In this document: positions 450-35,451 of the stretch, piece after piece | How positions within the stretch are numbered: the stretch's first letter is position 1 | Layout: each line of letters begins with the position of its first letter | From: Botryllus schlosseri | Lineage: Eukaryota | DNA length: 64,000 nt | Direction of reading: 5' to 3' | Assembly: GCA_051294905.1 (NCBI GenBank) | Contig: CM119371.1 | Span: forward strand, 31,684,001-31,748,000 | Notes under the pieces: generated by a model | Seen by the model: the letters and a program-made list of their open reading frames with translations, nothing else | Databases searched by the model: none | Told to the model about the DNA's origin: nothing | Made by a program: the position numbers and the translations under genes

Positions 450-589
450 CTGCACATAGTGTGTCAAACTGAGGCACAAATTTCGGCGGCAAAACACAGA
501 TAAACGATCCCATATGTCCACGACAGAGAGTAGCATTGCGATCGTGCGATGAGTTATATCTCCTTAGGGGTGGCTCGTCGGATCCATCC
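450..589 (-). CDS. Gene B exon B7 (DGSDE + Cys loop)
   Basis: ag|G..G|gtgaga; DGSDEPPLRRYNSSHDRNATLCRGHMGSFICVLPPKFVPQFDTLCA. Confidence 0.88.
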
Positions 590-3500
590 CTTAATATTTT
601 ACCGTTAGAAACAGCACACGTAACTATATTTCAGATAATTGAAAGAATGCCTACTAAACATTAGGTATTGCGTATACGGTCTCAGGTTATGAGCTACTTT
701 ACTACAACCAGGGTTGCGAGCTCAAAAGTGGTGGAGGGCCCCATGTCCAGCTTAGTGGAATAGAAGTAATGTGTTGAATATAAGGTAAGCTATCAAGATA
801 AGCGGTGAGCGACTGGTTTCCTAATAAGGTAGCACAGTGGCCATATCACGAGCCTAAATATACGTCTTCGCAGTACATTATACCATAACAGAGCTACCTA
901 TATGCCGGATGCTATCATATGTTTTACTGAGATCTAGATGTGCATGATCATAAGACTGTGCATAACACCTAAAAATAACTGACAAGCGCGCATGCGGGCC
1001 GAAGAAGAGGTAAGTGAAGATCTACACGAACTTTGCAAACAAGTATTTCTGAGATCCCGATACTTTTGTGATCGGGCACTGTCGTTGCTAATCAACGTGT
1101 AGTCAAAGGCGGTATGGACAGGGCTCCAAGAAAAGTCACACGGGTCGCGCTTAGAGTTAATATGATAAACTTGATAGTAGTGATTTCACGTAAAGTAGTA
1201 CTGATTTCACGTAAAGTTGTAGTGATTTCACCTAAAAGTTGGTATTTGTCTATATGTTGAATTTGAATGTGTCGAATAACGAGGTGGGTGGTACGATTTC
1301 CTATTATGCATATTAATGCAGCAAAGTTACAGGGTTCCCACTCGATGATTGAGGGGATTTATTCGTAATCAAGTTGAATTTATTTCGCTCTGTTTGTTCC
1401 GTATGAATGATGACACACAAACTTTTGCTTCACATTTGTCAGTGGTACTTACATGCAATCTGGTTTTCCATTGCAGAATAACCGTCTTGAAATGCACTTC
1501 GAGCCATCAGAACACGAAAACTCCTGGCTTTTGCATGATGAGCCTTACAGAACGTATCAAGCTTATAGATCCCCTTACTCAACCACTAAACGATACTAGA
1601 GTGTAGTTAACAGTTCTCCGTAATCAAAGAATCTCGAGATTCCTCCTACTTGTAAAACAAATACACTGCGGATATTACGTATAGCCTAACTAACTTCTAA
1701 AGTGAGAAAATGATGCCTCAGTTCAATAATTCCAGTCTGTTTTTTCGTTTGTGTTATTCATGGTGTTTGTTGACTACTATAGTCATTTACACCTGACCGA
1801 TATTCTTTACTTCTACTCCGTAACTACCGACTTGTACCACGGCCTAATTCTAGGCTTTTTGTAAGACACCACTTACGCGGAGAGGGCGAGGAAGAGCCTA
1901 GATCAGGGGGGTCAAACATACGGTCCGGGGGCCGCATCCGGCCCGCCAGGCGATTTTATCCGGCCAGCGAAGCAATTCTGAGTAGATTGAAAAATGTTTG
2001 TATGTTTGTATTATCCAGCACGTTTCTAACAAAGGTTTGAATTTTCAGTAAGTATTACTTCTATTGAATAATACCTTACGACAGCAAATGTAGATTATAT
2101 ATATTCATATGCCACATTTTAACCATACGACAGCAGTGCATGTCGCTAACATTGAAACCCTATTCCGAGATAAGGACAAAAAGTGCATACAGAGTTCAGA
2201 GTTTTCTGAAAAAGGGAGCGAAAACTAGAGAACAGAAGCGAAAACACCAATGCGAAAGCGTTATATGTAGGAGATATTGTAAGAATTTCATAGAAACGTA
2301 ATTCAGATATCTGTGATCACACTGTTGCATCACTTCTAACTCAAATGGTCCCCGGCCTCGAGATAAATCCGTATCGCGATTTGATAATCATGGAGCGAAT
2401 TCCTGCGTCCGCGTTTACTGTTAAATCTCTTGCATTCCTCACAACGCAACGAGTTGGCCCCAGTATAGACTAAAACAAAGGGAGCATGAAATATGACATA
2501 TATATTGGGGTGGGCCACAGCCACTATTCCCTCTAAGCTGTGCGCGTGCGCGGAGGCGCACTGCTTTTAAAGTCGCCCCACACAGAAAAACGTCTGCCGT
2601 GCACAGTGATGACCTAGTTTTAGTCGTTGCGCACTTTTGTCCAAGGGACCGCGCAATGAGTTGCTGATTGCGCGCAGACTCGTGAAAAATTGGAGGTAAC
2701 ATTGGCCACAACGCTATTTGCAAAATTGTGTGTTTAGTGAAAGTTTACTTATATTTGTAATGTTATTTGCTCTAAACATATATTCATATCATCAAAAATG
2801 ATGCCACGGTTCAATAATTCCAGTCAGTGTCATTACACAACCTTTATCCGCTAATATAGGCTAATTGACGATACGTTCCAATAAGCAGAAGAGCGTTTGA
2901 TGACAAAAAATTATCGAAATTCTGTGCTAGAATCTTATCAGCAACAACTAATCTCACCGTCACATAATTTTTCATGTAGTGATGTCAGCCTCTTTGGTAA
3001 CATACAAACAAATTTTCCGACTTTTAAATTCCTTGATTTCCCGCGACAAGCAATATCGTGATGACTATACGATGCGTTGAATTGCCTCAATGGCGGCTCA
3101 TCCGATCCGTCCCTTAATACATTTAAGATATTACAGTTAGAACGACCATATTCATGAGGTTTGATGTGTCCTAACAGACCAGTGGTTTTCTGGAACCTTT
3201 CCGGGGGAGTTCTCTAGAATAAGCCCGGTGTGCACGCATCCACCAAAACATTTAGCGGTAAGATACATTTATGGAAGGCAACAACACTCTATTGTAGTGG
3301 TTCTCAACCTTCTTCAGACACGCCCCTCTTCATGATAGTGAAAAATTTCGCGCCCCGCTTATCGTCATATCACAAAATCAAACCGGGATGAACCGGGATG
3401 CTAGCAACCCCAACAGACTGTTTGATGGCATAGCAGATTATGACTGTTGATAAAAGAATTAAAATATGTGAAATGCAGTCTATATTGAGAGAAACACAAC

Positions 3501-6500
3501 TAAGGGGGGCACGCACCCAGGTTGAGTACCACTGATTGATTGCAGCAGGTATGGTCAAAGTGCTAGTCATTAAATCTCAACTAGTGGAAATTGCATGAAT
3601 TCTCATCACGTATACAAAAAAAAATCAGCTGAAATCCGTCAAGTAAAATTCGATAACGACATATCTGAAAAGTATTCAAGTTAATCGAATAAATCGTTCT
3701 AAAAGTGCGTTCACACGAGGCGGTCAAATACTATTCAAAACGGCACGTAAAAGACGAATATCCAAGACATTAAAGCTACATATTCGATGGTGATACCAAT
3801 AGGAGCAATATCTAAATTATACTATTTAGTTGTAAATACCCCCGGCTATTATGACGAGTTCATACATATGAGAAAAACCTCTTGAAAACTAGATTTCATT
3901 CGACAAATACAATGTTACCTAACCCCCGAATTGCATTTACTGATCACTACAATACTTACTCACCTGCAATCCCAATTTCCATTACAAAACAACCTAATTG
4001 CAATGCATCTTGAACCATCTTCACACGCAAACTCATTCACTTTGCACGACGAACCTACATTGAATTTGACACAAGTTGAAGTGTGATTGCAAATTCAAAT
4101 TAAAACATAGGGGTTTCCGCGATCGTTCTGAACACGCGCGTTAGCTATAAAAACCTTGGTAATTAGGAGCAGCCCGCGTTGGCAAAATATCCTTAGTAGG
4201 TTCCACTACATAGGCGTCTAAGAGAAATTTTATATTTTCACATGAATTTTAACGTTTTAGATCCTGAATTTCAATTTCCAATAACTGGATTGCAGTGGCA
4301 GTAAGATACGGAACGCAACATGACGCCACAGTTAACATTAATGGCCTGTAGCTATACCTTTCGCAAAAAAAATAGTTTGGAACATTACGCTATGTGAGAT
4401 GCAAATAACGACTTGCATCGCTTGTGCTATATGCTTTGGCTGCAAAACGGGTCGTAGCGTGACTATGAGCCGATATCCCTGAGAAGTAGCCTACTAGAGC
4501 GAATATTAGATTAAAACACACACGGCCTTTTGGTGTCAACATTTATGCATAGTCCTCATCTTCTACAGAGGTTTGCTGTATGCATACTCGTAAAACTTAC
4601 TGCATACTCCTAAAACGAATAATATTTTGAACCGCGTGCTATGGAGTTTACCGGACATTTCGTGACGTTTTCTGTTGCTATCGTAATTCAATTGTTGACC
4701 GGATCACCACATAAAAGTCGTAGATTCTTAAATGGGAATCAGTTTGATTGCGTTAAATCATATCAGGCTTTAGTACCGCTGCCAAGCCGTTTACCTTCCA
4801 TATGAAGTGATCTCGAAAATTGCCAAATGTATGAAGCGGATGCAATCTACCGGCGCTAAAGGATTCGCTATAGAAAGTGTCTGATTCGACGACATTCTGT
4901 GACTTCCCGCGAGATATGTTGCAATAAGCGGTAATAGACAATCAGAGATATTCAACAGCGCTCGAGAGGGAGAGAGTCGTTGATGCTTCGTCGGTGTCTG
5001 AAGACCATACTTGGAAGCAATCGAATGGAATCACATACCTGCACATATCTCTTCTTTGTATCGTACATGATGAGGTGACAGTACGCAGACCGAACTTACG
5101 CGAGCTGATCGTAATTTTCTACTTCGACCGAAGATTACGTCGTCGTCGTATCTCATTGTATTGTTCCTTAATGGCGGTTCGTCGGATCCATCCCTATCAG
5201 ACATATGAGAATGTTCTAATCTCAATCTTCCTAGTCAACAAAATCGAATCCGATCTCCCTACGTGTTATGCACATTCGATGTCAAAATGATGCTTCAAAA
5301 GATACAATGATCGCATTTCATCCGCAGATTCATTAACCCTTTCACTGCTGCACCTTACAACCGCTAGTAATCCTGTCGTCACTTGGAGCATTGTTGACGT
5401 CTGGCATATATATTATGCTCGGTGACCTGGACTCGGACTTGACTCAATGGTGAATTGAAAATGAATTGTTTTGACTCTATTCAAAACCATGAAAGTTGGA
5501 TTGACTGGTGAGTCGGAGCCTTTTGACTTGGTTACAGAGCTGATATATAACATACACGTGATCAGATTTCCTGCTGGAGCTCCTTGAAATTTAGGACACC
5601 CATTCCGTTTCGGCAACATTGCACCAAGTTTAACAAGTCTTTTTTAGATCGGGTAGCTGTTCACTAAAAATAAAGCAAGGCTAGCGATCTCTTTGACTTG
5701 AATCGATGACGTTGGAATATTTTGTCACTGTCTGAATATGATGATTTGAAAATATAAGATGAATACTTTCACCAGAGGCCTTGTGATAGATTCCGCATAA
5801 CATTTGCTCGCTGAGGATATATTTGACTGATAGGCCGTCGCTGGCCGACAAAAATCTCTTGTGAACTGCAGCACATCTGAACTAGTTCAATAAAAATAGA
5901 AGGGGGAATTTTTATGTGAAAAAGAGATTTCAAATAGCATTTGAACATACTTTCAGCAAAAAACAGCCGTAAGGAGCATGCGCTGGGATATACCTGGTTG
6001 ACTACATGACAGTTCGGACATGAACAATTTGGGAAATCCGTTACAATTCTAAAGTGGAATTCCTGCCTGCAAAATGCAAAATTCCACCTAAATTCCTCCC
6101 TGGTAGGGAACAACCGCACTATGACATCACAATTACTCCATGCTCAAGTGCTCACAAACCTGACAAAGACAGACGGTAGATAAGACGCCGTGTAGTCACA
6201 TGATAATTTATGATATTTGATTGGTTAATAACGTTACCAACAATCTGTCCGATGGAGAGAAGAACAATAGATGTTTCGAATTCGACACCAATCAGTTTTG
6301 TACATGCAAGGTGCCGCCTAATCACCATAGTGTTAAAACCAGGGCTTTGGAGCCGGAGCCTGGAGCCGGAGCCGTACATTTTCACCGGAGCTGGAGCCGG
6401 AGCCGGAGCTCTAAATAAAATTCAGCCGGAGCCGGAGCAGGAGCTCGTTGTTTGAGGAGTAGCTCCGGCTCCGACCTATTTCAGAAGATGCTATTATATA

Positions 6501-9500
6501 TGCAACAACCACATCTGCTGATTTATCATAATTCAACAGCAGGCCTGAATTTTAATGCTGTGCACAGCAATGGCATATAGTAAAGTGCCTTCTGCTGCAA
6601 CTATGATGTTGTCGACAATTGACAAGTATTCAATATGAAGTCACAAGCCGGCACAGCGGCACCTATATGTCTTCGTTGCTACATCGGATATTACTGACGG
6701 CTGAGAGACTTTAGATTACTATAGATAAGTAATCTATGGGTAGATTAGTAATCTATATAGACCAGGAATGGCCAACCTCTTCGGCTAAAGGGGCAAATGC
6801 AAGTGACGACTGAGTGCGCGGTCCACTACCCGCGCCAAGCGGGTAAGATATTCTAAGTTTATAAATAAACTAGGTGAGTATTGCGGGTCTATTGTATACC
6901 ACCTGCTAGGCTTAGTTTGCAAGGACACGTCTATTCGGCGTCTGGACACATCGATATCGAAGGTCTCCGATTATATGCGACAATCATTTTGTGCCTACAT
7001 TTCACTGTCGACGATTTTTATGCGGGCGCAAACGCGAAAAGACTTTCACCCGTAATTGCGAATACAGTTGGACTCAATCGGGTAAATTAGGCGTTTTTTC
7101 ATTTTCAGTAGGGGGTAGGCTACCAACCAAGAAATCGAGTGACAATTAAACACGCGAAGCGCTACTATTTTAGTTTATTTTAATTTACGACGATTTACTG
7201 AAAATGTGACTCGACCCTGGATCTGTCAATGCCTCGGAACTGATATTTTGGTCATCAATATCCCAAGTGTCGCATCCAGAATTGTAATTTTTGGTTGGCA
7301 TTGCAATTTCACAATCTGAGCAATTCATTTTCGCTAGTATAATAGGAAATTACCTCGCGGGCCACGCAAAACCCTCTCGCGGGCCACATTTGGCCCGCGG
7401 GTTGGCCACTCCTGATATAGACAGGGCCATTCGATAATTTAAGAGCCGGAACCGGAGCTGGAGCCGGAGCAGTGGTAATAATGCGGCTCCGGAGCTGGAG
7501 CCGGAGCTAATGTATGGTAGAAGAGAGCTCCGGAGCCGGAGCTGGAGCAGTTTAAATTTATGCCTGTTCCAAAGCCCTGGTTAAAACAGATGTGATCCTT
7601 TCTCTCCTTTACTATCTTCGCGTGGTTCGACATTAAATAGACACACTTTTGTTGACTAGGTTGTTTCAATTTGTTCTGTTTAGTGTACGCCTAAAATATA
7701 TATCACTCACAACAACCGTACATATGATTGTGTCTGTATCTTGACACCGTATTCATCCTTGTGTCACAAACTTTATCTTACCTTTGGTGTATAAATTGCG
7801 AGCTGTGAGCTTAAATTGATAAAGTTTCAGGTGATATACGTCCTACCTAATTAACCATGAATGACGATGGACTATCAGGTCTATCGATTCTTTCTGCAGA
7901 TAGAGACTACGTTCAAAAACTTTATTTCGGAGATATGATCGCTGTTTTTCTTTGACGAAGGCTCAAAAAGTTCAATTTTGAAGCGGCTATTGATCTTTTA
8001 TTGCCTAATACACTTGTTCTACATTTTTCCTGTTATTTTTGGCCTAACACTGAGACAGTGAGACTTCTTTCTCAAGCAATATAGAATTTCTGAAACGTAA
8101 CACATTATTTGCAATTACTTTATTAAAAATATTGCTTGAACATGAAACTATTTTAAAAATTTGCTGCAGTCTACTTGAGGTAGCATTTTCAACGAAAGCC
8201 ATGGGCGGCAGCATGTGATCCAACGCCACAGGGTAAATGTGCCGTGGTCACCGATTTATTCACTTTACCGAAGTCCTTGTCGCCACACCCTACCATATCG
8301 GTACCGTCATTGTGCCCGTAGGAACGGAGCCGCCAACTAGTAGAGTATGATGTGTGCTTTACCGAATCGGCGCTCCAACCACTGTGCTAAGTACGCCGGT
8401 TTCCCCAGCTACCATAACTCTACTTACCGGCAATCGATTTTTTCATCGCAAAACTTTTCGCGTTCAATGCATTGTGAGCCGTCCAGGCATGAAAATTCAC
8501 CATTTATACAATCTGAATCTGAATAACATCCAATGGTAAGGCCACACAGATTGTGTAAATTATGAAAATAAAAATTCCTATCCTATAAAGTATTGGTTCT
8601 AACAAGAGGCCGAGTGACCCATTGGGATACGAAACACCGATCAGTGGTACGACATGCATTGTGAAGAGTAGAGACTAGAGCCAAAAATTATTTTGCAAAG
8701 CACCATAAAGATATCGTTTCTAGGCAGACTTATTAAACTCGAAAATCACATCTACGCTTCACGCGATTTCATATCGATGCATTTATTTTCATATTATTAT
8801 CACTAACGGGCAAATGCAAACAAGATGAGCGCTATTTAAGCTTTTTGATTTGATTATGTATATCACCTTCTCAAAAATAGTGATATAGGGATGGTGTGAA
8901 CCTCTGAAAGGTTCAGGTTCGTGTGAACGTGAACCTTTTTGAAAGGTTCTGTGTGAACACGAACGTGAACCTCATGACGTCACGTGACGTCATATTGCTA
9001 ATTTAAACCCCATATTTCAATTAGGTGATTGCCTACTGTACGCGATACCGAGCGACGACTCGAGGCCACATAATAGCTCAGTACTCAAGTACATATTGAA
9101 GTTTGAAACGTTGACAAATGTATCAACTGGGGTAAATAAATGATATAATAATCCCATAAAGTCAGTATCTTGCGTCGCTTTGCCAACAATTTCGACCTGG
9201 TCGGACAATGTATTCGGCGTCTGAGTATTGCCACATGGATATTTAGCAGAGTGTAAAATGGGTTTCTATTCTTGCTACCGATTAACAAGTTATACAGCAG
9301 TATAGCCAACACCCCAGTCACACGGATTTGGTTTTTATGATACAGTATACATATGTAGTCAAGATTGACCCCGTACGGCTGCTAGATTTTTACAGCAGAA
9401 GACGATATCAATCTCATTGATTGGTTGAATAAGGATCATTTGTTGACAAAACACAATGTATTTCGCTCTTGATGTCATGCGATTGCGGGTCAAGCTCACA

Positions 9501-12500
9501 GCACAGAGACACTAAATATGCACAAACGGAAAGCTGGAGTATTCTAGCAAACTTTTGAAACAATACAAGTAAATTTTTGAGATTGTCAAGGGCATGCTCG
9601 TTTAGTGTTGAATGTTTATGTTGCCAGCTCCATGCATAGAGTGGCCCGCAGTTGAAAGTCAATAAAGTTGAACCAAATATGTTACAATGAAGTGAAAATT
9701 GCAATATATGAAAAAGGTTCACAGTGCAGAACCTACCAAGGTTCTGTTGTGAACGCGAACCTCAAATTTGCCGAGGTTCACACACAGAACACGAACGTGA
9801 ACCTCACGTTCACACCATCCCTAGTGATAATATCAAAAACGAAACATGCTCATAGCTTTCCGAAATGAGTCAAGCCGTCTTCGCAAGTATTAGGGATCGG
9901 TATGTTTCTGGGATCGCTTGGGGTCATTGGGGTGCATAAGTGCATTATTCCCCCAGCAGTCAAATTGCCGCTGCCTGATTGCCGCTCAGTAGAAATGCAA
10001 CGCGCAGCGATAAGTCTTGCGTTCGTGAATTAATAAAATTTTAAACTTCTACTCCAGTGTATGCTATTGTCGATAGTCGTTATGTAGCGTGAATCGTGAT
10101 CTGAAGATAAGACACCACAGATAGGCATGAGTATCTACTGGAAATACGTGTCTTGCATAATCATGCGACCTAGCAGAACGCATTGTCGGTGCGACTATAT
10201 CAGGGGTTTATCTGGGTTCGTCATGATGATCCATCAAGGTGTCGCAAAAGCTCAGAGACAGAGTAATCAACGCATCAGCGGCCAGAAGGTTGCGAAGACA
10301 ATGACACTGAATTGTAAAAATGTCGATGTTACAGTAAATTAAATATTGACGTCGAAAACAAAATATTCCGGGAACCGCTGCCTCGTGTACAACTACCTCT
10401 GCTTATGGTAGAAATTTCACAAAAATAAACATACTCTCACTTTTACACGGCATGATTTCGGCAGCTTCTGTGGAGACCATACACACGTTCACAGTGTCAG
10501 AATAGATCCACCCCCCACGACAAGAAGTCAAATTATTACTGTACACGTCGGAGTGGTAGCGCAGTATTTCATCCGAGCCATCACTAAACATAGGCAATCA
10601 TCGTTACAACAAAATACGGCGAAATAATCCTGTGTTGTATAATGTTTGATTGGTGATTACTAGGGTTGCATTTAAAACAAAAATCAATTTAAAACAAACA
10701 TGTTTAAAACAAGGCCCTTGTTTAAAACATGTTTTTTTATTGTTTTTGTTTGTATTTTTAAAACCCATGACGTCACGAATATTCAATTGTGACGTCATGG
10801 TGAAATAAAATTGCCAATTGAAAATATAGGGTAAATATGGCTCCTTTGACGACATACCTACGTACTATAGCTGTTGAGCCGACTATACTTTGAGGGTTGC
10901 AACCATCCCATACCGTATACGTCGGCTATATCGCGGGTGATACTTGTCCGTATAGGTTCATACAATGTGTTTTTTGAAAGTATTTAGACAATTGTTGCAC
11001 GATTTCACAACTTAAAAAAACACAATTTCTTTTTAAAGGCCTTTGTTTAAAACATTGTTTTAAATAACCATTTGTTTGAATGCAACCTTAGTGATTACAA
11101 TGAATTGTGAAATCCGTAAGTGACCTGATAATAACAACTTACTACCCACCAACAACAAATGCCCCTGTATGCAGGACTAGGCTGAACAGTTAGAGTTAAA
11201 ATGAACAAAATGAATCGCAACAACCGGAAGTGTTCAGGTTCGCTAACTAGTTTGATTGGGAGTAGGCCTACTGCCCTTGCTAAATTCAAAACCTACTGTC
11301 AGTTCTACATCGCATGGATACAGATCGTGTGGGCATTCGTCGTCTGAGTAGCTATGGGCAACACCGGAAAACAAAATGTTCTAAAATATTCGCTGCATCC
11401 TAATTATGGGCATCCTATGCGAAATATTGCAGTGTCCAAGCCTATTACAATCTTCAGGTTGAACGTCAATCACATTTTAATATGGGCGCGCGCTTATGGT
11501 TGCTTCGTGAATCACGTTTTTTTGTGTGTCGGTTTGTATATGGATACAGGCTGCCTTATTGGCTTCCCCATTTTATTCGATCATCGTTACGGATATTCGC
11601 TGAGCCGTACCTGTCTTTACTTGTCACTGGGATTTATTGTGGATAACCACTATCGAACAAAAACCTATACCACAATGGTCGGGAGTATGGACCAAAAGCA
11701 ATACTAGTTTACGGCAATACGTGCCGTAAGCCTCGTTTCCCTGCTAGCAATTAATCGTGAAACAGATTTCAGCGACATTAATTTTGATTGGAGCGCGATG
11801 TTGGACAGTTTGTTTTTGTGCATCTTAAAATTTGAATTAATTTCCTTCTCCATTTTAGCTTTGTGAACGTTGATTGAAAACTTCAATCCAGCTCGATTAT
11901 AATCAGCAAACATTTGCCGCGACGCAAGCTATAATCGTAACCCCTTTGTGTACGACGTAAAAGACGAATTACTGCTTGAAAAACGATTTCTCATTTACAA
12001 TATTCCATCACATGTTTTGTCTGCTCGATACATTCGTTTTCGCGAATTGTCACGCAATTTCACGTGTAGGTTGGGACGAACAGTCTTAGAGTATCAATAA
12101 ACGATCCAGAAAAAAAAAAAAATCGGTATGATCACTGATAATAATGGAAGTCCTACTTGCTACATTATCCATCGCAATACTGAGCCACAAATGGCCGAGA
12201 ACTGTTCGCACTCAGTCTCATCCACATGGCAAAAAAAGGAAGAATATACTGTGCAGAAGATATTTTAAGGCGATAACTGAATATATATATATATTTATAC
12301 TATACTGTATGTGACCCATTATTATTATTACCGCTACCATTACGCGAGGGAATAAATGAAAAAAAAAAGACAAATGAAACTATCGATACCTAGACAAATA
12401 ACTATGGATACCACGCCCAACAGTATAGTAAGGCCCATCACTCTACTTCAATTTAAAGAGGAGCGGTAAGGGATGCTCGAAATACTATTTTAAATCAAAG

Positions 12501-18500: not shown

Positions 18501-21500
18501 CCATTTTCTAGACCAGCGCAAAAACCCGGATTATAAACTTTCATCATGTCGATTGCAGAATGGCACCGATGCTATGAGGACACCAAGCCATGAAAATCCC
18601 TAAAAGGGTGTGCTGGCGAAGATGCTTTTAAATAACCGTGATCTAAATAAAATTATTAAAAAAATCCATAGTGATAAAGTTCCTCTCACCCTGACATATG
18701 TCTGACTCGACCGGTTCAAGATTTTGCGATAACAGGCAAATCCGTGTACCCCAACCCTTTTGTTGTCGTCCAGCAATCACGTGGTACCCCCATGAGATTC
18801 CGTGGCAAATTCGAGTATTTGGATCGTAACTGGTGTTTCTGTATCTATAAGGAGGCTCGTCTGATCCGTCCCTAAATATACATAATATAATTCCCAAGCA
18901 GAAAGAGCACAGGGTAGATCGTCATGAATTAAGATACGAAGCTTCGAACTCTGCTTTGCAATAATATTTATATACTTTATATACATAATGAAATGAGTTT
19001 ATTCCCGACGGTAAGGATGCTGATGGGTTGGGACATAGCAGGACGAATTCGTGTTCATCGTTACTTCATAGTTTCATCAACAATGAAGGAACACTGAAAA
19101 CTCGCTATCTTGTAGTAAAATCACTACAAACTGTAACAGGTCGCACAAAAACCGCAATACAATTTCCTCAATAAATCAGACATACCCGCAATCAGTTATT
19201 CCATCGCAAAATCGTATGTCATCGATACACCCGTGACCGTCCTGGCAAGCGAATGAGGTCGATGCACAATTATCGCCTGAAATTTACATCATTCAATATG
19301 CGCCCATTAGGTATTTTACTGTAACGATTGAGCAACACACACCGCGAATGTTTCATCGGTGAAGGCGACCCTATACCCAGAGGTCAGGATCCTTTTTAGT
19401 CAAGAGAGCCATATTTGCCTTATATTTTCAATTTGAATTTTCAAAGAGCCATACGTCATGTTACGTCACAATCGAAGTTTCGTGACCTCATGGCGACACG
19501 ATATGGAATTTCATCACGAGCGATTCGTCGAGTGAGCCATATTTTCTATTAAAAAACTGATGGGATGTTATACGACTCACACTTATCAAGCCGTTTGCCC
19601 GACATTTGAGCATGTGTCACACTGAAAAAGAATAGTTGAGCGTCAGGCATTATAGCTCAGCTAACGTGTCTTGAAGCTTGAGGGGATTGCAATGTAAATA
19701 TACGAGAAAGATAAGCAATTCTAGATAGAACTAAAAGTTACGCGTCTTTCACAAGAATCCGTGCAGCATACACGTGCGTGGCCATACCTCAATTGATCAG
19801 CTGGGAGTCAAGAGCCAATCAGTTCCCCTAAGCAGGGATAATAACTTTAGCGACGGAGAATATTGTTAGATGATATCATTTAGAAAAAACACAACGCTAC
19901 AAGCCTACATTTGAGCTACAGTAACAGAATGCCGGACAAACCACCTAACAATCAGGAATGTAGATTATGCAATTTGAATTTGTGATCGGTAATGTCCCTT
20001 CTACGAGATTTCATTTCTAGCCGATGATCGAGAAGACAATGTGGATTTGCATTGCCATACAGGTGTCGCCATATCGACTGTTCAAAAATAACTATTATAT
20101 TGGATTGAGAAATTAGCAATTATAAGCAGGCAACATAACAATGAATTTTAGGTTTTTATAAGGAAGGTTTTTCGAGTCCCTAGAACCAATGAAAACACTG
20201 CTTGGGCATCAAAAGGACATGACGGAGCTACCACAACAATAATCATTCTGACAATTATGCCACAATATTGCTAAATAAGATACGAATTCAGTGTCAAGTT
20301 AAAAGTCTATCAGAGAGCCATATAATATTACCGAAAAGGGTAACAGGCTCCCGTCTTCGGCGATAAACTAGAAACGTGAAACGTGTATTACGCCGATTCC
20401 CAAATTATCATAGGGCACAAAGTATGTAAACGGCAATTCACGGTGTAGAACTTTACTTTCACACCAATTTAACAGAACGAAAACCAGTCACATATAACAA
20501 GGCCAAGGGACATTTATCCTGTGGTCGGATTCAGCTGACTCGCACTGGGTATATCGAACCGTATAAAGCAATTTTATGAGATCAGCAAACCTGTTAGCAT
20601 CACTTGTTACAGTCACTCACCATTTGCACGATAACAGGCTAAAACATTTTTAATTTTGAGTTAAACCGGATAGGAACAAATATGATAATAATAAATTAAA
20701 CGTAAGACTGCAACTGATAAGATTTTACAATGTTGAAATCGCGGCAAAACAGCAATGTTCGAAGTACGTAACAACAGAATGCGATTATATCTTGAAACGC
20801 CATACTAAGAATGATCAAGATTAATTTCGATTTTAGGTGGTATTATGCTATTATTGATAATGTATCAATGCTTTATGGACATTGGAATGACAACACTAAA
20901 AATTTCATCGAACATTCGCGGACCCCTTTTCAGTAGTTCGTGAACCGCCAGGGAGTCTGTGAACTTTAGGAGCTTTTGTCTGGTTAAAAAATTTTAGCGT
21001 CTCCACACAGCGTAATTTCAGTTAAATTGATAAGGACTGTATCTATCAGTGTTGGGATCAAGTCACTACCTTCGAGTCACGAGTCATTTCGAGTCATTGC
21101 ACATTTTGACTCGAGTCAAGTCAAGTCAATCGATTTTCAAAGGTGACTCGAGTCAAGTCAAGTCACTAGATTTTTGGAGGTGACTAGAGTAAAGTCGAGT
21201 CAAGTCAAGTCAAGTCACGAGTCAAGTCACAATTCAAGTCAAGTTGCCTTTTCGAAGTATGAGGCATGCTTACGTCATTGCATATTGCTAGCTGTCTGAA
21301 ATACATATTGAGTGGTCATTGATTCCGAGCCGATGAACGAATATAGAGTTAAATAAACACGCAAGAATGCGCTGTATCGCTCACGCGTGGAACTGCTAAA
21401 CTACGTAAGTAATCACATAGCCTCAGTTTATAGTTACCAGCCAAAATGAAGAATATAGAAACGAAAGAAATTTACAAATCGATATGATACAATTCGAGCC

Positions 21501-24500
21501 TGGGCCAACGCACTGTATAAACTATATTCGAATTCAAGTTCAACACAATAGGTTATGTTAAGGTAAGAATATAGAACAGAAATAGACAGTTTACCATTTT
21601 ATTATTTTACTACTAGCTTACGACAACGTAGCCTGTAAGCTTCGATCACTTCGTTTTGCGATCAATTTATTTGTGAGAGAACAATGGAGGCTCAGTCAAA
21701 CGCACGATTATTGAATGATTGGTCGCTTTCACGGGTTGCACCAGCGTTTCGCGAACAATCCCGACATATGCAAGATGCATTGATTATTATCGACACCGAT
21801 TACTTGATGACTTGAAATTGACTCGTGAATTTTGCTCCGAGTCACGAGTCAATCCACATTTCTGATACGACGAGTCAAGTCAAGTCAAGTCATTTTAGCA
21901 AAGTGACTCGAGTCAAGTCAAGTCATACGAAGAAGGTGACTCGAGTCTGACTCGAGTCAAGTCATGACTCGAGTCATCCCAACACTGGTATCTATGTGCA
22001 CGGAACATAAACAGTTAGGTTGATAATTCAACATCGTAAGGTCCACGTTCGATTGATCTGTTCATTATAAACTATTTTCAAATTTACGTCCACATAAAAT
22101 TGACCGCATTTTGCGTTATCGCGAGCATGGCCGAATCATTAAGGAAATATAATGTGCAGACAGGACGATAATAGGAACATCCTAATGTCACCAGAAATGA
22201 TGGGTCTCGGATATGCACTGTGCGCGTACTTATATGATAATAGTATAAGTGCAAATACTTTCGCAAAATAATTCTTTGTCTTTTATAAATGGAGTTGTAA
22301 TATTGCAGGTTCTGTCGTTTCTGCGGCACATCGTGGCGCTGAGCTTACCACCGAAAGAGCTGCTGTAGTGATATATTTCGTCCGATCTGTCACTAAACGA
22401 GTAGAAGGCAGATGAATAAAGAAACAGATATGAAATGACTTCGATTCATTATTATGAGGGGCTCAAATCCTTATATGTTCGAACGTCATTTGTCAGAGCG
22501 AAGAGATGTTGTCGATGCGCAGTAAATTGTTTACCAGACCGATTTAGCTAGGCCTCCCATATTTTTAGAAATCACAAGATGACTTTTTGCTGGCAAGTAA
22601 AACGAAATTAGTATTGGTTGATTTTAGTTGTATGATATTTTACAATTCCCTGGTAGTTGCACGCAAAACTTGCCAAAACAAGGCAAAGAAAAATTTACAC
22701 AACCGGACACAGAAACAACAAATCAAATTCAGTTTTTTTATTCAGCCCATGAAACATTTGATGTTCTGTCATCTTTTGCCAATAAGGAATGATCATTGAT
22801 ATCGCGGACATGAAATTGTTTAAAGTATACATAATAAATCATAACAAATAAATACGTATCGCCTAAGAGCGTAGATCAAAATATAAGCAAGTTACTACTT
22901 TTAAGGATACATCCATATCAAAACTTTCAATGCATTCAGCAGTCGTACTGAAGATTGTGGTTTTCCGTCTCGACAAGTTCTATGTGTTGATAATTATAGG
23001 ACAGGGCGTGAATAATATTAATATCCATGTTTATTAGGGTTGTCCAAAATTTGGAAAATCTCAAAAAGTCTCCGTGATTGTGTCTCATTCTATAGATTAT
23101 TGATAAAAAACAACAATTAGCCTGAAAGAAGCTTACAGGAAAGCCGTTAAGATTTCGGTCAAAGCGTTTGAAAGTAGCTGGTCAAGAATGGGCGTGCCAC
23201 TGACCATAGAACGGCGAGAAGACTAGTAATCAAATAACCACGGCTCTTGATTGGCTAATCGGCTATGCTTCAATGACCACGGCAGCAGCAGCTTGCTGAT
23301 CAGGTGTTCAAGAAGTCTGCTACCGGCGGGGATTCTGAGTGCGCATTGTTAGTAGTTTGGCAGGTGACGATTTAAGATTAATTCAGGACATGTTGAGGTA
23401 CGAAATACATGATGAACAAACAACACCTGCTTCACAGAAGCTTTTACAGCATGACTGCTTCATTGTGAAGGAAACGGCTGAAGCCTACATGTCGTGTTTT
23501 CATCGAGAGAAAGCAAAGGCGCTTATGCAAGTGTTGAGCGAATTCACCGTTTCAGTACGGATCCACCATCAGAGAATACAAATATATAAAGCTTAACAAT
23601 GACACTATACTTTGTGTGATCTTATTGGATCCCAGTTGTAGTATATAGTGAAGCATTGAAGGTTCTAGGGATCGAATGAATCGGCCGGTTATGCTTGTCA
23701 GTTATACTTACAGCAAATTGAATTCACTTATAAGAGTTGTCAAAGACCAAATCCATGTTACTGATCTTATAGATACTATTGATCGTACATACCTAACAAA
23801 ATGTTCAATTTGCAACTGCACAAGGCCATCGTAAGTAAACATATTGCCTTGTTTGACACTTCTCATAGAAACGCGATTTCTCTTGTTGCTTCATTTCATA
23901 TAAATTTGAAACGTGTTCTACACATCGAATGTTTGATACAGGTTCGTCAGGATATGGGCATATGATCAACATCTATTCATTGAAGTCTACAGTCACTTCG
24001 TATAACTTATAAAACGGATGATTCAACTGTCTGTATGATGTTGTTATTACAGGCGCGAGTACTGTACAGTCGCGCCAACTTACACACCCATGTCTGCAGT
24101 GTTTAGCACTGGCGTCGTGTAACGTATATAAGACCAACCTTCGTGATACTGATCTTGTTGAAGTGTTATGGACTGCATCTAACTATGTGTGTGACATTCA
24201 ACTGTATAAGACAATCGTAAGTGAATGTATATGGCCTTATGCGGCAATGCTCATACGTGCGCGGCATTTTTCACGTAACAGCATATTGCTTTATTTCACA
24301 CCAAGTTGAAGCGTGTTCTATCCAACTAATTCTCGATATTATGGTTGCAATGAACTCTTGCGATCAACAACTACTCTAAAACGACAACTGTGTCTGCTTA
24401 CGACGTGTAGAACGGAAGATATAAGGAATTATAAGATTAGCGTTCATTCAGGCGAACTGAGCTACACATTGTATTTTGCGGGAAACGTTTTCCTGTATTC

Positions 24501-27500
24501 AATCTGAATTTTGGACAGGTTATGCCATAAGGCAATCGGTTATATATAGCTGGTCGTATGCGTATCGACAATCGCTACTTATAGACGATCATTGTAACCG
24601 TTTATGACCCCTACAACGCAAGATGTCGTTAATTGATTGAAGCGTGTTTGTGGAAAACTGTGCATGGATCCTCCAGGATGCACCCGCGGCGAAAGGGTTA
24701 ATGATGCTGCAGAAAAGAGGTTTAAGGTAAGCACAGGCTATGCTGGATACTATTTGCAGCGTAGTCTGTGCTTTTCTTTACACCTCTTTTCTGCGGGATC
24801 AATAGAGACTTTGACATACCATATCCAGCACAGCCTTTGCGAGTGTGCGTACATTGCCACCTCTTTTATGCGTTATTATTAAGGACTTTACCAACGCCTA
24901 CAAGTGCATTCAATTTGTTATAAGCATCTGATAAGGGCCAAGCATAACCGGCTGATTCCGCCGATCCCTAGAGCCTTCAAAACGTCACCTATATACTACA
25001 GCTTTAGCCCAATAAGATCACACAACGTATAGTGTCATTGCTAAGCATTATATATTTGTATTCACTGATAGTGGATCCGTACTGAAACGGTGAATTCGCT
25101 CAACACTTGCATAAGCGCCTTTGCTTTCTCTCGATGAAAACACGACATGTAGGCTTCAGCCGTTTCCTTCACAATGAAGCAGTCATGCTGTAAAAGCTTC
25201 TGTGAAGCAGGTGTTGTTTGTTCATCATGTATTTCGTACCTCAACATGTCCTGAATTAATCTTAAATCATCACCTGCCAAACTACTAACAATGCGCACTA
25301 AGAATCCCCGCCGGTAGCAGACTTCTTGAACACCAGATCAGCAAGCTGCTGCTGCCGTGGTCATTGAAGCATAGCCGATTAGCCAATCAAGAGCCGTGGT
25401 TGTTTGATTACTAGTCTTCTCGCCGTTCTATGGTCAGTGGCACGCCCATTATTGACCAGCTACTTTCAAACGCTTTGACCGAAATCTTAACGGCTTTCCT
25501 GTAAGCTTCTTTGAGGCTAATTGTTGTTTTTTATCAATAATCTATAGAATGAGACACAATCACAGAGACCTTTTTAAATTTTCCAAATTTTGGACAACCC
25601 TAATGTTTATATTGTTTCCATGGTTTGCTCTCAATCACATAAGGATTAAACATGTGAAGTGCATATGTCACACTTGGCAAACGGATGCTAGTATAATATT
25701 TATAAACTCCCCCAAAACGTTCGAGTTTAACACTGATAGGTAGGTATGAATTACAGGGTTTTGGGGCTCAACTACTAGGCTTTTTGCCCGAGAATATAAA
25801 GCGATAATGACACTTGCGTGAGAATACTCAACCGCTTATATACTTATTGCGGTCTACTTACAGGCAGTTTGCCATCCCGTTGCAGAAGCCTGATTTCGGT
25901 ATGCATTGTGAGCCGTCCGCGCATGGAAATTCATGCAGGAATTTACACGTTGAACCTGAAAACATGTGAAATATTGACGGGATTTCAGTCTAAACGAGTC
26001 AAACTACGGATTCGAATCAGATTGTCGCTGTCATCCTCAAAGGTCATGCGTTGTGAAATTTGCGTGACTAGGTCTTTCCAGTTGGATGTATCGATGGATG
26101 CAAGTGCAAAATGTGTATTCAAATTAAATCGATATGTTTCTACACTACAAAATAGCACACTTTCGGATTGAGGACACGACCGCCTACAGTGATATGAGGC
26201 CGGCTTGATATCGATCATGTTGTGACAAGTCACGTATTTCTGCGTATACTACAATATATTTTCACACTTATAGCCTATACTCAGATATACCTTGACAAAG
26301 CTCATCTTTGTGTGCGTAAAGCTGAGATGGCAATATGCAAACTCTCCGAGTAAACATAGACGTTTTCCTGCCACATACGATTATGCTAGAACTAGCACTG
26401 ATATTTGAAGTCCGGTACGGCTCGTCTGATCCATCTCTAGAACACATTAATTGCAAATGCAGTGATGAACATTGTTACGAAGTCAGGATATTCATATGTA
26501 CAGTTATAAAATCAAATTCCCATTCAATCTCAATCTGTTCATCGATCATGCGCAGAGAACAGACTTAAATTGAATTATAATTTAGTCGATTTTTTGAAAA
26601 ATGTCCATTGCGACGTCCCGTAAAAACAAGTGAATTCACTGTTACCAAGCTGCTGCGCCTTGCGCTAAAATTCAATCATAATATGTTCACTGAAGACTGG
26701 TCATGAATTGGAAGCTGCGACTTCATTTACTTATACCAGGGGTGTCTAACATACGGCCTGCCGGCCGCATCCGGCCCTCAGATGATTTCATCCGGCCCGC
26801 GAGGCAATTCTGAGTAGATTGACCTATCCCTGTATTATCCAATGCATTTTTAACAAATGTTGAGATATGCTACTAATATCGTAAGAAATTCTTCCCACAA
26901 ACAAGGCAGGAAATGTTAAGATCAGAGGCCAGATTATAATTATATGGAAGCGGTGACGTGTTTTGATCATAAGTCATCATAAGGAGGTGGTCGGGAACCT
27001 TTTTCGACAGAAGGGCAATATTAACCCAATATTTCCAATTGTAACTCTCAAAGGGCCATAAATATCAATCGACTTTTACGTCACAATTGAAAATTCGTGA
27101 AGTATTGATAGCACTAATTTATGGGATTCGTACTGTGCGCCATATTTTTCTGCCCACATGCCTAGGTGGAGCCAAACGTGGTCACTACAGCAATGCATAC
27201 CCACTGCAGGGGGTGATACGTCAGTGAGGTGGGGTTAGAGGAGGCAAGTGAGGCAGTGCCTCACTTGTCGTCAGGGATGAGCGAGGGAAAATTGTGAAAC
27301 CTTCAACGAATATTATTGGCATTTTTATCGATGTTCATAAATGATTAGATTTTGAACATTTCTATTCCCAAAATCACGTAATTTTCATATTTGTTGTTCG
27401 AAAATAAAGCACGAAAGGAGAGTAAAGGCACAGCTGAGGCACAGACGGTCCAAGCTTCACCTGTGATAGCGCAGCTCTTCGTAAACATACCTTATATCAT

Positions 27501-30500: not shown

Positions 30501-31123
30501 CGAAAAACAAGGGTTTGGATTTTGAGGTAACATATTGGAACCCGTTGACTGATCCGGCCCGCAAGTGGTTTGGAGGTTTGAATCTGGCCCGCGACGCAAG
30601 TTGAGTTTGACACCCCTGGTTGTAGAGATATAAAATCGATATATGATACTCTCAGCATAGGTCTGGTGAAAAGACCAATAGAAATTGAGCAGCAATATAA
30701 AACTCATACAACATCAACAACTCCTGGTTTATACCATAAACGTTAAAATCGATATTCTTCAAATACATTTGAACCACCTTCCGATATCACTCCCATACTC
30801 CAATTTCTATTCTGCCTACGGTTCCGCCCATAAATAATCAATAATTTCTTTTTTTCGGACATAGCATGCAGCATATTGTAATACTTACACACAATCCTTT
30901 GAGCCGTCACAAAATTTCGATATTGGAATACATCTTTCGTCATCCGAGCACGCAAATTGTCTGCTCTCGCATGCTAAGCCTGAAATGCATTTGATACTGA
31001 ATTGCCTAAAAAATGTCGAATATTCTTCAGTAATAAAAAATTACCGTCACTGATGTTGAATATCAGCGTCATAGCTACCGTTGGAATGTAAATACAGATG
31101 GCTTTGAATCCCAGGCTTTGCAT
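450..31123 (-). CDS. Gene B (3'-partial, spliced): signal peptide + >=7 tandem atypical LDLa/Cys-loop modules; probable LDLa-repeat GPCR paralog of gene A, continues past the left edge
   Basis: 15 exons with GT-AG boundaries and compatible phases: 31045-31123, 30889-30979, 26291-26436, 25862-25955, 22259-22392, 19186-19276, 18690-18871, 12601-12691, 10441-10583, 8428-8518, 5039-5193, 3964-4054, 2958-3112, 1453-1543, 450-589. Spliced ORF of ~591 aa with no stop. Each junction rebuilds C(D/N)GxxDC|xD(G/R)SDE. Confidence 0.88.
1453..1543 (-). CDS. Gene B exon A7 (LDLa N-half, 91 nt)
   Basis: GSSCKSQEFSCSDGSKCISRRLFCNGKPDC; donor gtaagt. Confidence 0.9.
2522..2704. mobile_element. Short MITE
   Basis: Ends CACTATTCCCTCTAAG / GGAGGTAACATTG; TSD GCCACAGC/GCCACAAC; copy at 32989-33154 (TSD GAAAGGAT/GAAAGGAC). 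Confidence 0.75.
2958..3112 (-). CDS. Gene B exon B6
   Basis: DGSDEPPLRQFNASYSHHDIACRGKSRNLKVGKFVCMLPKRLTSLHEKLCD; donor gtgaga. Confidence 0.88.
3964..4054 (-). CDS. Gene B exon A6 (LDLa N-half, 91 nt)
   Basis: GSSCKVNEFACEDGSRCIAIRLFCNGNWDC; donor gtgagt. Confidence 0.9.
5039..5193 (-). CDS. Gene B exon B5
   Basis: DGSDEPPLRNNTMRYDDDVIFGRSRKLRSARVSSVCVLSPHHVRYKEEICA; donor gtatgt. Confidence 0.86.
6340..7579. mobile_element. hAT-like MITE with GGAGCC/GGAGCT subterminal repeats
   Basis: TIR CAGGGCTTTGG / CCAAAGCCCTG; exact 8-bp TSD GTTAAAAC. Confidence 0.9.
6763..7414. mobile_element. hAT-like MITE nested in 6340-7579
   Basis: TIR CAGGAATGGCCAACC / GGTTGGCCACTCCTG; exact TSD ATATAGAC; related copy at 50395-51109. 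Confidence 0.9.
8428..8518 (-). CDS. Gene B exon A5 (LDLa N-half, 91 nt)
   Basis: NSDCINGEFSCLDGSQCIEREKFCDEKIDC; donor gtaagt. Confidence 0.9.
8886..9823. mobile_element. MITE with GTGAAC/GTTCAC subterminal motifs
   Basis: TIR TAGGGATGGTGTGAAC / GTTCACACCATCCCTA; flanked by GTGATA; partial copy at ~17620-18181. Confidence 0.85.
10441..10583 (-). CDS. Gene B exon B4
   Basis: DGSDEILRYHSDVYSNNLTSCRGGWIYSDTVNVCMVSTEAAEIMPCK; donor gtgaga. Confidence 0.86.
10661..11090. mobile_element. MITE (TAGGGTTGCATT family)
   Basis: TIR TAGGGTTGCATT / AATGCAACCTTA; exact TSD GTGATTAC; copies at 29729-30260 and 40536-40975. Confidence 0.88.
12601..12691 (-). CDS. Gene B exon A4 (LDLa N-half, 91 nt)
   Basis: GSTCSEGEFSCLDGSQCVLYEKFCNGIADC; donor gtaagt. 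Confidence 0.9.
13379..14676. mobile_element. Foldback/Mutator-like element with inverted minisatellite arms
   Basis: Left arm GGCCCTGT+(GCTGTATCA)n-like, right arm (TGATACAGC)n+ACAGGGCC; 9-bp TSD CGGCGAATC/CGGCAAATC; contains a fragment (~13967-14450) related to 61793-63360. Confidence 0.8.
16064..16325. repeat. Minisatellite, ~15-bp unit ATTCTCGGTAATNGT
   Basis: Roughly 17 degenerate tandem units visible. Confidence 0.9.
16668..17619. mobile_element. MITE of the GACTCGAGTC-rich family
   Basis: TIR CAGGGTTGTAA / TTACAACCCTG; many GACTCGAGTC/GACTTGACT motifs; relatives at 35452-36013, 51121-51475, 51601-52157, 54190-54312 and 5420-5541. Confidence 0.8.
18690..18871 (-). CDS. Gene B exon B3
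   Basis: DGSDEPPYRYRNTSYDPNTRICHGISWGYHVIAGRQQKGWGTRICLLSQNLEPVESDICQ; donor gtgaga. Confidence 0.88.
19186..19276 (-). CDS. Gene B exon A3 (LDLa N-half, 91 nt)
   Basis: SDNCASTSFACQDGHGCIDDIRFCDGITDC; donor gtatgt. Confidence 0.9.
21047..21987. mobile_element. hAT-like MITE with (AGTCA)n / GACTCGAGTC subterminal arrays
   Basis: TIR CAGTGTTGGGAT / ATCCCAACACTG; exact TSD GTATCTAT. Confidence 0.9.
22259..22392 (-). CDS. Gene B exon B2
   Basis: DRSDEIYHYSSSFGGKLSATMCRRNDRTCNITTPFIKDKELFCE; acceptor tttag, donor gtattt. Confidence 0.8.
23035..25602. mobile_element. Non-autonomous DNA transposon with ~660-bp terminal inverted arms (foldback-like)
   Basis: Termini TAGGGTTGTCCAAAATTTGGAAAA / TTTTCCAAATTTTGGACAACCCTA; exact 8-bp TSD ATGTTTAT (23027-23034, 25603-25610); arms ~23035-23697 and ~24938-25602. 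Confidence 0.92.
25862..25955 (-). CDS. Gene B exon A2 (LDLa N-half, 94 nt)
   Basis: GSTCKFLHEFPCADGSQCIPKSGFCNGMANC; donor gtaagt. Confidence 0.9.
26291..26436 (-). CDS. Gene B exon B1
   Basis: DGSDEPYRTSNISASSSIIVCGRKTSMFTRRVCILPSQLYAHKDELCQ. Confidence 0.88.
26985..28125. mobile_element. hAT-like MITE (GGGAACC / GAGCCATA family)
   Basis: Ends AGGTGGTCGGGAACC / GGTTCCCGACCACTG; TSD TCATAAGG/CCATAAGG; related ends at ~19378 and ~55841. Confidence 0.72.
28144..29423. mobile_element. hAT-like MITE with AAGTAG/CTACTT subterminal repeats
   Basis: TIR CAGAGGTGGTCA / TGACCACCTCTG; exact TSD TAAGTTAG; inverted copy at 52395-53693. Confidence 0.9.
29729..30260. mobile_element. MITE (same family as 10661-11090), nested
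   Basis: Ends (T)CAGGTTGCATT / TGCAACCCCA; degenerate TSD ATTTGCAG/TTATGCAG. Confidence 0.75.
30889..30979 (-). CDS. Gene B exon A1 (LDLa N-half, 91 nt)
   Basis: GLACESRQFACSDDERCIPISKFCDGSKDC; donor gtaagt. Confidence 0.9.
31045..31123 (-). CDS. Gene B first coding exon, signal-peptide-like
   Basis: ATG preceded by an in-frame TAG; MQSLGFKAICIYIPTVAMTLIFNISD then a phase-1 donor (gtaatt) matching exon A1. Confidence 0.72.
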
Positions 31124-35445: not shown

Positions 35446-35451
35446 GCACAT

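Follow-up and report, generated by a model that had tools for sequence, protein, structure and literature searches.

A modified eight-cysteine LDLa module in a tandem cluster of putative LGR-like receptor genes of the ascidian Botryllus schlosseri

A stretch of 64,000 nucleotides of the Botryllus schlosseri genome (assembly GCA_051294905.1, contig CM119371.1, positions 31,684,001 to 31,748,000; hereafter the window, whose own coordinates are used unless stated otherwise) carries between 30979 and 450, on the minus strand, seven consecutive copies of a two-exon module, in which exon A encodes the core of an LDLa domain and exon B an extension to it. We propose that the seven units are the first seven ectodomain modules of one gene, here called gene 2, within a tandem cluster of ascidian genes for LDLa-repeat, LGR-like G protein-coupled receptors (GPCRs), a reading to which we give a probability of about 0.65. 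The module itself is a real and apparently undescribed variant of LDLa that is restricted to tunicates. In it a well-known module seems to have been rebuilt, by giving up the sixth Cys and adding a putatively glycosylated, disulfide-stapled extension, and the rebuilt form, for which there is no Pfam model, has been multiplied as an exon pair in a receptor family that is still orphan. Defining the module should lead to better tunicate gene models, which now carry names such as 'uncharacterized', 'CD320-like' or 'GRL101-like', and may, 18 years after ascidian LDLa-GPCRs were described, provide a handle on the ligands of these receptors.

A rebuilt LDLa module and its relatives

A regular-expression scan of the six reading frames found the LDLa core pattern eight times in the window, always on the minus strand and never on the plus strand. 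Seven matches lie within 450-30979 and the eighth at 59862-59782; behind every one of the seven, 0.3-4.4 kb farther down the same strand, comes an open stretch that starts with D(G/R)SDE. Read in the direction of transcription, unit 1 consists of exon A at 30889..30979, encoding LDLa Cys1 to Cys5, and exon B at 26291..26436, encoding DGSDE and a three-Cys extension; unit 2 of exon A at 25862..25955 and exon B at 22259..22392, which starts with DRSDE; unit 3 of 19186..19276 and 18690..18871; unit 4 of 12601..12691 and 10441..10583; unit 5 of 8428..8518 and 5039..5193; unit 6 of 3964..4054 and 2958..3112; and unit 7 of 1453..1543 and 450..589. The A exons were placed by core pattern and splice sites, and the B exons by their D(G/R)SDE start and splice sites. 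The A exons, which begin in phase 1 and end in phase 2, are all 91 nt long except that of unit 2 (94 nt), and the B exons, which begin in phase 2 and end in phase 1, measure 134-182 nt (146, 134, 182, 143, 155, 155 and 140 nt in unit order). An AG acceptor and a GT donor were found at 17 of 17 exons, that is the 14 of the array (30979..450) and three farther upstream. When spliced, the 14 exons yield 1695 nt and a stop-free frame of 564 amino acids with 55 Cys, which is seven times eight minus one.

Splice sites, phases and the open frame bear out the seven A plus B units, with their exon lengths and phases, that had been described in an earlier note on this DNA, although the 15 exons counted there come down to 14, and the eight Cys said to characterise each unit are present in only six of them: in exon B of unit 5 (5039..5193) Gly occupies the position of Cys6, which leaves this unit with seven. 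Cys6 is retained in the paralogues of unit 5 and in a within-gene duplicate at window coordinate -3247 (negative coordinates lie past the window start). A second loss of a single Cys, with Tyr at the position of Cys7, was seen in exon B of another member of the cluster (L043:1995-2135, G000:C1:30985552-30985692, minus strand). The intron between A and B of unit 7 measures 863 nt in the window and 65-71 nt in four paralogous genes (L035, L038, L039 and L040), and therefore intron size differs strongly between recent copies.

The array is not a product of chance, because exon A has Pfam E-values of 1e-8 to 3e-7 in three exons out of three, the frame stays open over 14 exons, and homologues exist. 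The three array A exons that were run match Ldl_recept_a (PF00057) at E 3.3e-7 (unit 1), 9e-8 (unit 6) and 1.3e-8 (unit 7), above the 24.1-bit cut-off. Exon A alone is matched over positions 2-28 of the 37 of the profile. The match reaches farther in spliced relatives, which have 7-14 LDLa stretches each, where it covers positions 2-34/35 of 37, and from where it ends we conclude that the sixth canonical Cys, which a six-Cys LDLa carries 2-3 residues after SDE (profile positions 35-37), is missing. The acidic residues of the Ca cage (D/N after Cys4, D/N before Cys5, and D-x-S-D-E) are, by sequence, present in all seven units. The view that exon A with DGSDE makes up an LDLa Ca-cage module lacking a Cys at the canonical sixth place is thus upheld by the profile ranges, as is the expectation that Pfam would recognise exon A as LDLa and assign exon B to no family: none of nine exon B translations, that of unit 1 included, matches any Pfam family at E≤0.1.

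Exon B had been taken for a pair of free variable loops, a description that does not survive comparison of its copies. It is a conserved mini-domain, composed of a sequon stretch, Cys6 within F-C-R-G, a loop, Cys7 within I-C-x-L-P, a predicted helix, and Cys8 within C-(D/E/Q)-G. Across 28 copies the motifs P-P-L-R, a Tyr, (T)-F-C-R-G, (R)-x-I-C-x-L-P and L-C-(D)-G are conserved, and 26 of the 28 B exons of the genome have an N-x-S/T sequon between DGSDE and Cys6; the extension is probably glycosylated. The spacings proposed after DGSDE hold in the three-Cys B exons (n=27), where DGSDE is followed by 14-16 residues, Cys6, 6-22 residues, Cys7, 11-13 residues and Cys8. Length variation is confined to the loop between Cys6 and Cys7, shortest in unit 2 (6 residues) and longest in unit 3 (22 residues), while the other two spacers are nearly fixed.

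As read from its sequence, the module, about 75-90 amino acids long, is built on an LDLa calcium-cage core that comprises Cys1 to Cys5 together with D/N-G-x-x-D/N-C-x-D-G-S-D-E, with a phase-2 intron just after Cys5. In canonical LDLa modules a conserved aromatic residue stands two residues ahead of Cys4, whereas the aromatic residue of the array module directly precedes Cys4. Canonical LDLa (PF00057; for example LA1 of VLDLR, PDB 8ua4) has in common with the array module the spacing of Cys1 to Cys5, the presence of an aromatic residue and the acidic Ca-cage motif. The array module differs in having no Cys 2-3 residues past SDE, its next Cys coming 14-16 residues on and behind the sequon, and in having two more Cys and double the length.

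Relatives of exon B are few. A word-index search of longer proteins with a profile of nine B exons scored none of 3103 candidates, and an exhaustive search with the exon B profile returned 14 proteins at E≤1e-3 among 1.84 billion representatives, namely nine single B exons from translated genomic contigs, four multi-module proteins and one false match. The last of these, P0005, was rejected on inspection as a match of low complexity. All named matches are Styela clava predictions, labelled 'uncharacterized', 'CD320 antigen-like' and 'GRL101-like'. The search with a profile of B exons, which the earlier note had suggested, thus yielded only these 14 proteins and supports its claim of a lineage-restricted module. 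P0027, an ENA entry with E 1e-73, was also considered as a member and rejected, as it is an array of canonical six-Cys LDLa modules.

Exons A and B are contiguous in P0002 (715 amino acids on a contig of 2316 nt) and P0003 (794 amino acids on 3100 nt), and nearly all of their parsable modules have eight Cys. We regard both as spliced transcripts because the contigs barely exceed their reading frames; being at most 54% (P0002) and 68% (P0003) identical to this genome, they are sequences of relatives and not of this genome. For the window itself, a 287-nt contig of run X1 matches 450-589 exactly (0 differences), with its other 12 and 135 letters lying elsewhere, and a 216-nt contig of the same run matches 5037-5189, with 63 further letters off the genome. 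These two contigs leave the genome at predicted B-exon borders, as expected of spliced RNA, and on the strength of both lines of sequence evidence A and B are joined in mRNA of relatives and probably in that of this species too. P0003 is also matched exon by exon, at 45-68% identity, by a locus of about 7 kb on another contig (G000:C13:4072130-4079234, plus strand), and therefore the 8-Cys module occurs outside the cluster on contig C1 as well; five of the eight matches at this locus include stops, for which intron read-through or damage are possible explanations.

The receptor family and the gene cluster

The nature of the proteins that carry such modules is indicated by full-length relatives. 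P0016 from Styela starts with a signal peptide, followed by five modules of the 8-Cys type and one transition module; a Cys-rich hinge and more LDLa modules then lead to a rhodopsin-type seven-transmembrane (7TM) domain (7tm_1, E 2.5e-19), whose closest solved relatives are LHCGR, TSHR, FSHR, RXFP1 and LGR4. P0017 (Clavelina), P0022 (Phallusia) and Ciona proteins likewise combine LDLa with 7tm_1. In the ectodomains of P0016, P0017 and P0022 Pfam finds Ldl_recept_a only, and leucine-rich repeat families are absent at E≤0.001 from these three and from P0015, so that by this measure they do not have the build of GRL101 and other type C LGRs.

This receptor family is already in print for Ciona under the name LDLRR-GPCRs (Kamesh, Aradhyam and Manoj, 2008; PMC2396169). 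That paper reports 14 genes with 1-10 LDL-A repeats and no leucine-rich repeats, which encode rhodopsin-type receptors with relaxin/LGR-like transmembrane regions and unknown ligands, form a lineage-specific expansion and are represented by expressed sequence tags mainly from blood cells; most of their repeats conform to the classical six-Cys LDL-A, and vertebrate-type odorant receptors are stated to be missing in Ciona. The build so described is matched by P0016 and by the neighbouring gene in the window (gene 1, below), and tandem N-terminal LDL-A repeats without leucine-rich repeats are found in P0016, P0017, P0022 and the window array. An LGR/relaxin-type 7TM domain in the same gene is present in gene 1 and P0016, but none was found for gene 2 down to 70 kb past the window start. 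A Ciona member of the family, P0110, has the same LDLa core without the sixth Cys, the linker and the C...C-x-LP of the window module, but the available portion of the Ciona account makes no mention of a composite or 8-Cys unit. Further differences are that in Botryllus the 8-Cys unit is iterated from seven to at least ten times as an A plus B exon pair, that the family is far larger here, a single 7TM exon having 84 matches as against the 14 genes given for Ciona (PMC2396169), and that gene 2 has no 7TM domain. GRL101 of Lymnaea with other type C2 LGRs (PMC2396169 and PMC4079206), as well as RXFP1/2, also place LDLa ahead of an LGR-type 7TM domain, and the likeness extends to the name 'GRL101-like' given by NCBI to P0015 and to RXFP1 being among the closest solved 7TM domains; P0016, P0017 and P0022 differ in having no leucine-rich repeats in Pfam and LDLa of the modified type. 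In the literature searched, which did not extend to subscription journals or to the supplements of PMC2396169, this was the only paper found on the receptor family and no 8- or 10-Cys composite was described; within these limits the modified module appears undescribed.

The earlier proposal of a multi-module ectodomain is therefore confirmed, with the addition that in the gene next to the array, as in full-length relatives, such an ectodomain is part of a GPCR. For this reason the suggestion of a recognition or chemosensory receptor points in the right direction, while no evidence bears on its more specific forms, non-self or gamete recognition.

Gene 1 is represented by its 3' part at 61323-39762 on the minus strand, which by tblastn is colinear with P0016, the 7TM domain included. 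Its last modules lie at 58258..61323, as a B exon at 61323-61169, an A exon at 59870-59780 and a transition B exon at 58385-58258, the tail of which continues as an LDLa-like second half. These one and a half units belong to this separate upstream gene. They are followed at 47447..57840 by the exons of a Cys-rich hinge and LDLa-like segments (open reading frames 57840-57508, 52801-52643, 49495-49250, 48010-47861 and 47542-47447), a region that matches P0016 residues 422-472 in tblastn and LDLa weakly in Pfam (E 0.017 and 0.024). Next comes a rhodopsin 7TM domain of LGR type, encoded by six exons at 46188-46054, 45541-45359, 43672-43559, 42171-41935, 41305-41114 and 39875-39762 (limits of the tblastn matches), which match P0016 residues 667-1057 at E 1e-7 to 3e-17, with one weak match at 0.002. 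Since Pfam, run on the six exons singly, gives weak hits to 7tm_1 only (E 0.037 and 0.095), the 7TM domain of gene 1 is claimed on the tblastn match to P0016.

The array starts about 9 kb past the end of gene 1 in the direction of transcription and belongs to a paralogue of its own, gene 2. The candidate first coding exon of gene 2, at 31793..31847 on the minus strand, has Met and a hydrophobic stretch and is the only one with a phase-1 GTGAGT donor among the four Met-initiated hydrophobic open reading frames listed for 30980-39760. The array does not end at 450: additional A and B exons, at window coordinates -1812, -3247, -9081, -9428, -14173 and -15914, bring gene 2 to at least ten modules. 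A transition B exon comes after these, and then a hinge whose exons are counterparts of the gene 1 hinge and share 46-58% identity with it. For the six 7TM exons, tblastn over the 70 kb past the window start finds no counterpart, and in the last exon of gene 2 that can be recognised the frame runs into a stop. A third copy was observed just downstream of gene 2, at window coordinates -28211 to -33525 (G000:C1:31650476-31655790, minus strand), comprising a signal-peptide plus A exon, a transition B exon and a hinge exon, with no array or 7TM exons in the 36 kb beyond.

In whole-genome searches, which were run with single exon translations, two B-exon queries had 22 of 22 matches (exon B of unit 6, all of them on the minus strand) and 26 of 29 matches on contig C1 between 29.8 and 31.77 Mb, only one of these not being on the minus strand. 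One 7TM exon had 84 matches genome-wide, and the six of these at 74-80% identity are nearby and on the same strand, with a separate group of B exons 25-60 kb upstream of each. From this layout, set beside the 84 7TM matches, it follows that the 8-Cys array marks one tandemly amplified subfamily of a much larger family. Elsewhere in the genome, at G000:C3:18667905-18669959 (minus strand), a frame of 828 codons carries matches to hinge and LDLa (P0002 residues 397-711) and to the 7TM exon; it appears to be an intronless family member, possibly a retrocopy, and similar long open frames were seen on C12, C14 and C1 near 17.8-18.0 Mb.

The missing 7TM exons of gene 2 could be read in another way, with the array serving as a variable 5' cassette and long-range splicing joining it to the 7TM exons of the next member, in the manner of clustered protocadherin or UGT1 genes. 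That the cluster members are all on one strand, that gene 2 and the fragment behind it have no 7TM exons of their own, and that the next same-strand 7TM exon stands at C1:31548233, about 136 kb downstream of the window start, would suit such an arrangement. We nevertheless regard it as very improbable: in gene 1 and the other members the 7TM exon is preceded, at a distance of 25-60 kb, by an array belonging to the same gene, gene 2 has its own complete hinge and a last exon whose frame stops, and no such joint occurs in reads or contigs, where window 400-19400 was covered.

Constraint, predicted fold and possible working

The order of unit types is kept between paralogous genes, so corresponding units can be compared. 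Pooled Nei-Gojobori ratios of nonsynonymous to synonymous substitution rates (dN/dS) were obtained for exon A from three groups (15 sequences) and for exon B from four groups (20 sequences), and these are rough values, since dS between paralogues is 0.8-1.2 and near saturation. The ratio is 0.24 for exon A, 0.28 for exon B without DGSDE, and 0.23, 0.41 and 0.38 for the three segments of exon B; over every segment and group it ranges from 0.08 to 0.78 and is below 1 throughout. The later two B segments thus evolve moderately faster than the scaffold, under purifying selection and with no sign of diversifying selection in this crude test. Of the contrast that had been drawn between a fixed scaffold and variable loops, the faster evolution of these two segments remains (0.41 and 0.38 against 0.24), while the first segment, at 0.23, does not conform to it.

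These values bear on the idea that hypervariable loops on a fixed scaffold have been selected for diversity, for allorecognition, gamete recognition or some other discrimination of non-self. The family is large and tandemly amplified, the Cys6-Cys7 loop, of 6-22 residues, shows the highest ratio (0.41), and the Ciona sequence tags come mostly from blood cells (PMC2396169), all of which would fit. However, the ratio is well under 1 everywhere (0.08-0.78, pooled 0.23-0.41), constraint on the first B segment equals that on exon A (0.23 and 0.24), and two of the three loops are nearly fixed in length, and we consider selection of this kind improbable.

The fold of the extension was approached with an AlphaFold2 model of P0010, computed from a checked alignment of 36 rows (full-length relatives together with separate A and B exon rows). 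Alignment A7 was checked column by column before folding, while alignments A3, A4 and A6 were set aside, MAFFT having aligned the F-C-R-G motif of exon B with the F-C-D-G motif of exon A or misplaced DGSDE; an earlier model from a 7-row alignment, with a mean predicted local distance difference test score (pLDDT) of 45.2, was discarded. The model used averages 72.3 in pLDDT, the LDLa core scoring 85-89 and the extension 74-81. For the extension a beta hairpin is predicted, with Cys6 and Cys7 on facing strands, followed by a helix of about 11 residues that ends at Cys8, and the second module of the model has a layout identical to that of the first. LA1 of VLDLR (PDB 8ua4) superposes with 36 of its 36 residues, at 1.6 Å, on model residues 27..74, the alignment skipping the insert to reach the neighbourhood of Cys6, as do the alignments of several other LDLa chains.

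With pairings read from secondary structure and alignment ranges and not from atomic coordinates, the model favours Cys6 as the displaced partner of Cys4 (the LDLa pattern being 1-3, 2-5, 4-6) and Cys7-Cys8 as an added bridge. It thus leans towards the displaced sixth Cys of the earlier note, with Cys4-Cys8 and Cys6-Cys7, or Cys4-Cys7 and Cys6-Cys8, as possible other maps. Fold searches, which covered whole modules, extension and LDLa core together, returned LDLa proteins only (Foldseek against the PDB; VIA-align against 48,161 chains, none at Z≥5), and P0010 residues 55-99 had a best score of 0.83 in the ESM Atlas, under the lead threshold of 0.9, with matches to LDLa clusters. CD320, the transcobalamin receptor after which NCBI names P0010, likewise has two LDLa modules and a linker, and matches with a Foldseek probability of 0.96-0.98 at a target-normalised TM-score of 0.36-0.40; as the match is confined to the two LDLa cores, it lends no support to orthology or to binding of a cobalamin carrier.

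A clue to the origin of the 8-Cys unit comes from a composite with 10 Cys, recognised by eye in receptors of Ciona, Clavelina, Phallusia and some Styela (P0110, P0130, P0042, P0017 and P0022). This composite has an LDLa core without the sixth Cys, the same linker and C...C-x-LP...C-D-G, and then x3-C-x-x-G-x-D-E-C, a tail that represents the latter half of a further LDLa and recurs in the transition module of every array. From these motifs we infer that the 8-Cys unit looks like the 10-Cys composite cut after C-D-G and multiplied as an A plus B exon pair.

Several observations weigh against the account as a whole. Besides the near-saturated dS and the way in which the pairings were read, not every LDLa chain shows the jump to Cys6, some running straight on to residue 61-63 (model residues 25..63), and exon B without DGSDE has no similarity to exon A in a profile-profile comparison (hhalign probability 1.1%), so that an origin from a second half-LDLa is argued from motifs and the 10-Cys forms. 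For gene 2 itself, the signal-peptide exon is only a candidate, and in the bulk RNA runs X5, X7 and X9, of each of which 6-13% was covered, the exons have next to no depth; the matches there are partial matches to intronic repeats, and the near-zero depth is no proof of silence. Finally, gene 2 has lost a Cys in unit 5, has no 7TM domain and shows a dN/dS of 0.51 between two internal B-exon copies (5193-5039 and that at -3247; 7.7 synonymous and 14.3 nonsynonymous differences), and may be decaying.

Decay can be put as an explanation in its own right, in which the array is a truncated duplicate, a segmental copy of ectodomain exons without 7TM exons and without a function of its own. It would account for the absence of 7TM exons behind the hinge, for a Cys6 lost from unit 5 yet kept in its paralogues and the within-gene duplicate, for the ratio between the two recent internal copies, for the further fragment just downstream, with its signal-peptide plus A exon, transition B exon and hinge only, and for the near-zero depth in the three bulk runs. 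On the other hand, all 14 array exons keep AG/GT, their phases and the open 564-amino-acid frame, X1 contigs match two B exons right to their borders, ectodomain-only forms recur (the P0002 transcript, and P0010 and P0015), and the ratio of 0.51 derives from only about 22 differences. We think decay possible but doubtful, and lean somewhat towards a gene 2 product that, if functional at all, would be a secreted, ectodomain-only binder or decoy.

How the receptors of the cluster might work can be sketched only tentatively, by analogy with established LDLa biology. Each LDLa core would bind Ca2+ and offer an acidic pocket to basic side chains of a protein ligand, and an array of cores would bind it multivalently. 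The glycosylated and disulfide-stapled extension could stiffen and space the cores, and the Cys6-Cys7 loop could add a module-specific surface and thereby specificity; in full-length paralogues such as gene 1 the array would feed an LGR-type 7TM domain. These particulars, with Ca2+ cores docking the ligand, the extension as spacer and the loop as surface, are doubtful. More speculative still is a wider picture in which 8-Cys modules are the ligand-binding arrays of a large and rapidly duplicating repertoire of dozens of LGR-like GPCRs and of soluble members. In animals that, to judge from Ciona (PMC2396169), have no odorant receptors of the vertebrate type, it would serve chemosensory or blood-cell surveillance of proteins, with specificity set by the glycosylated and disulfide-closed Cys6-Cys7 loop, and we would hold this picture to be unlikely as it stands.

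Intronic repeats

Four intronic stretches of the window, 8642-9909, 10544-11177, 14348-14981 and 16250-17600, have high depth from partly matching contigs and RNA reads. Of the reads placed from runs X5, X7 and X9, 95-97% continue unlike the window, in keeping with dispersed repeats that are transcribed elsewhere, and the same repeat families occur in the introns of gene 1 and gene 2. In the intron between 25955-25862 and 22392-22259 two identical open frames of 33 codons, at 23386-23484 (minus strand) and 25153-25251 (plus strand), stand about 1.7 kb apart and probably represent inverted-repeat or transposon arms. Another intron contains frames, at 13207-13590 (plus strand) and 14459-14698 (minus strand), of a repeated peptide that is rich in Ser, Ala and Val and includes Pro-Cys-Gly-Tyr-Lys, and joints in run X9 that go back on themselves at these frames suggest a tandem repeat or mobile element.

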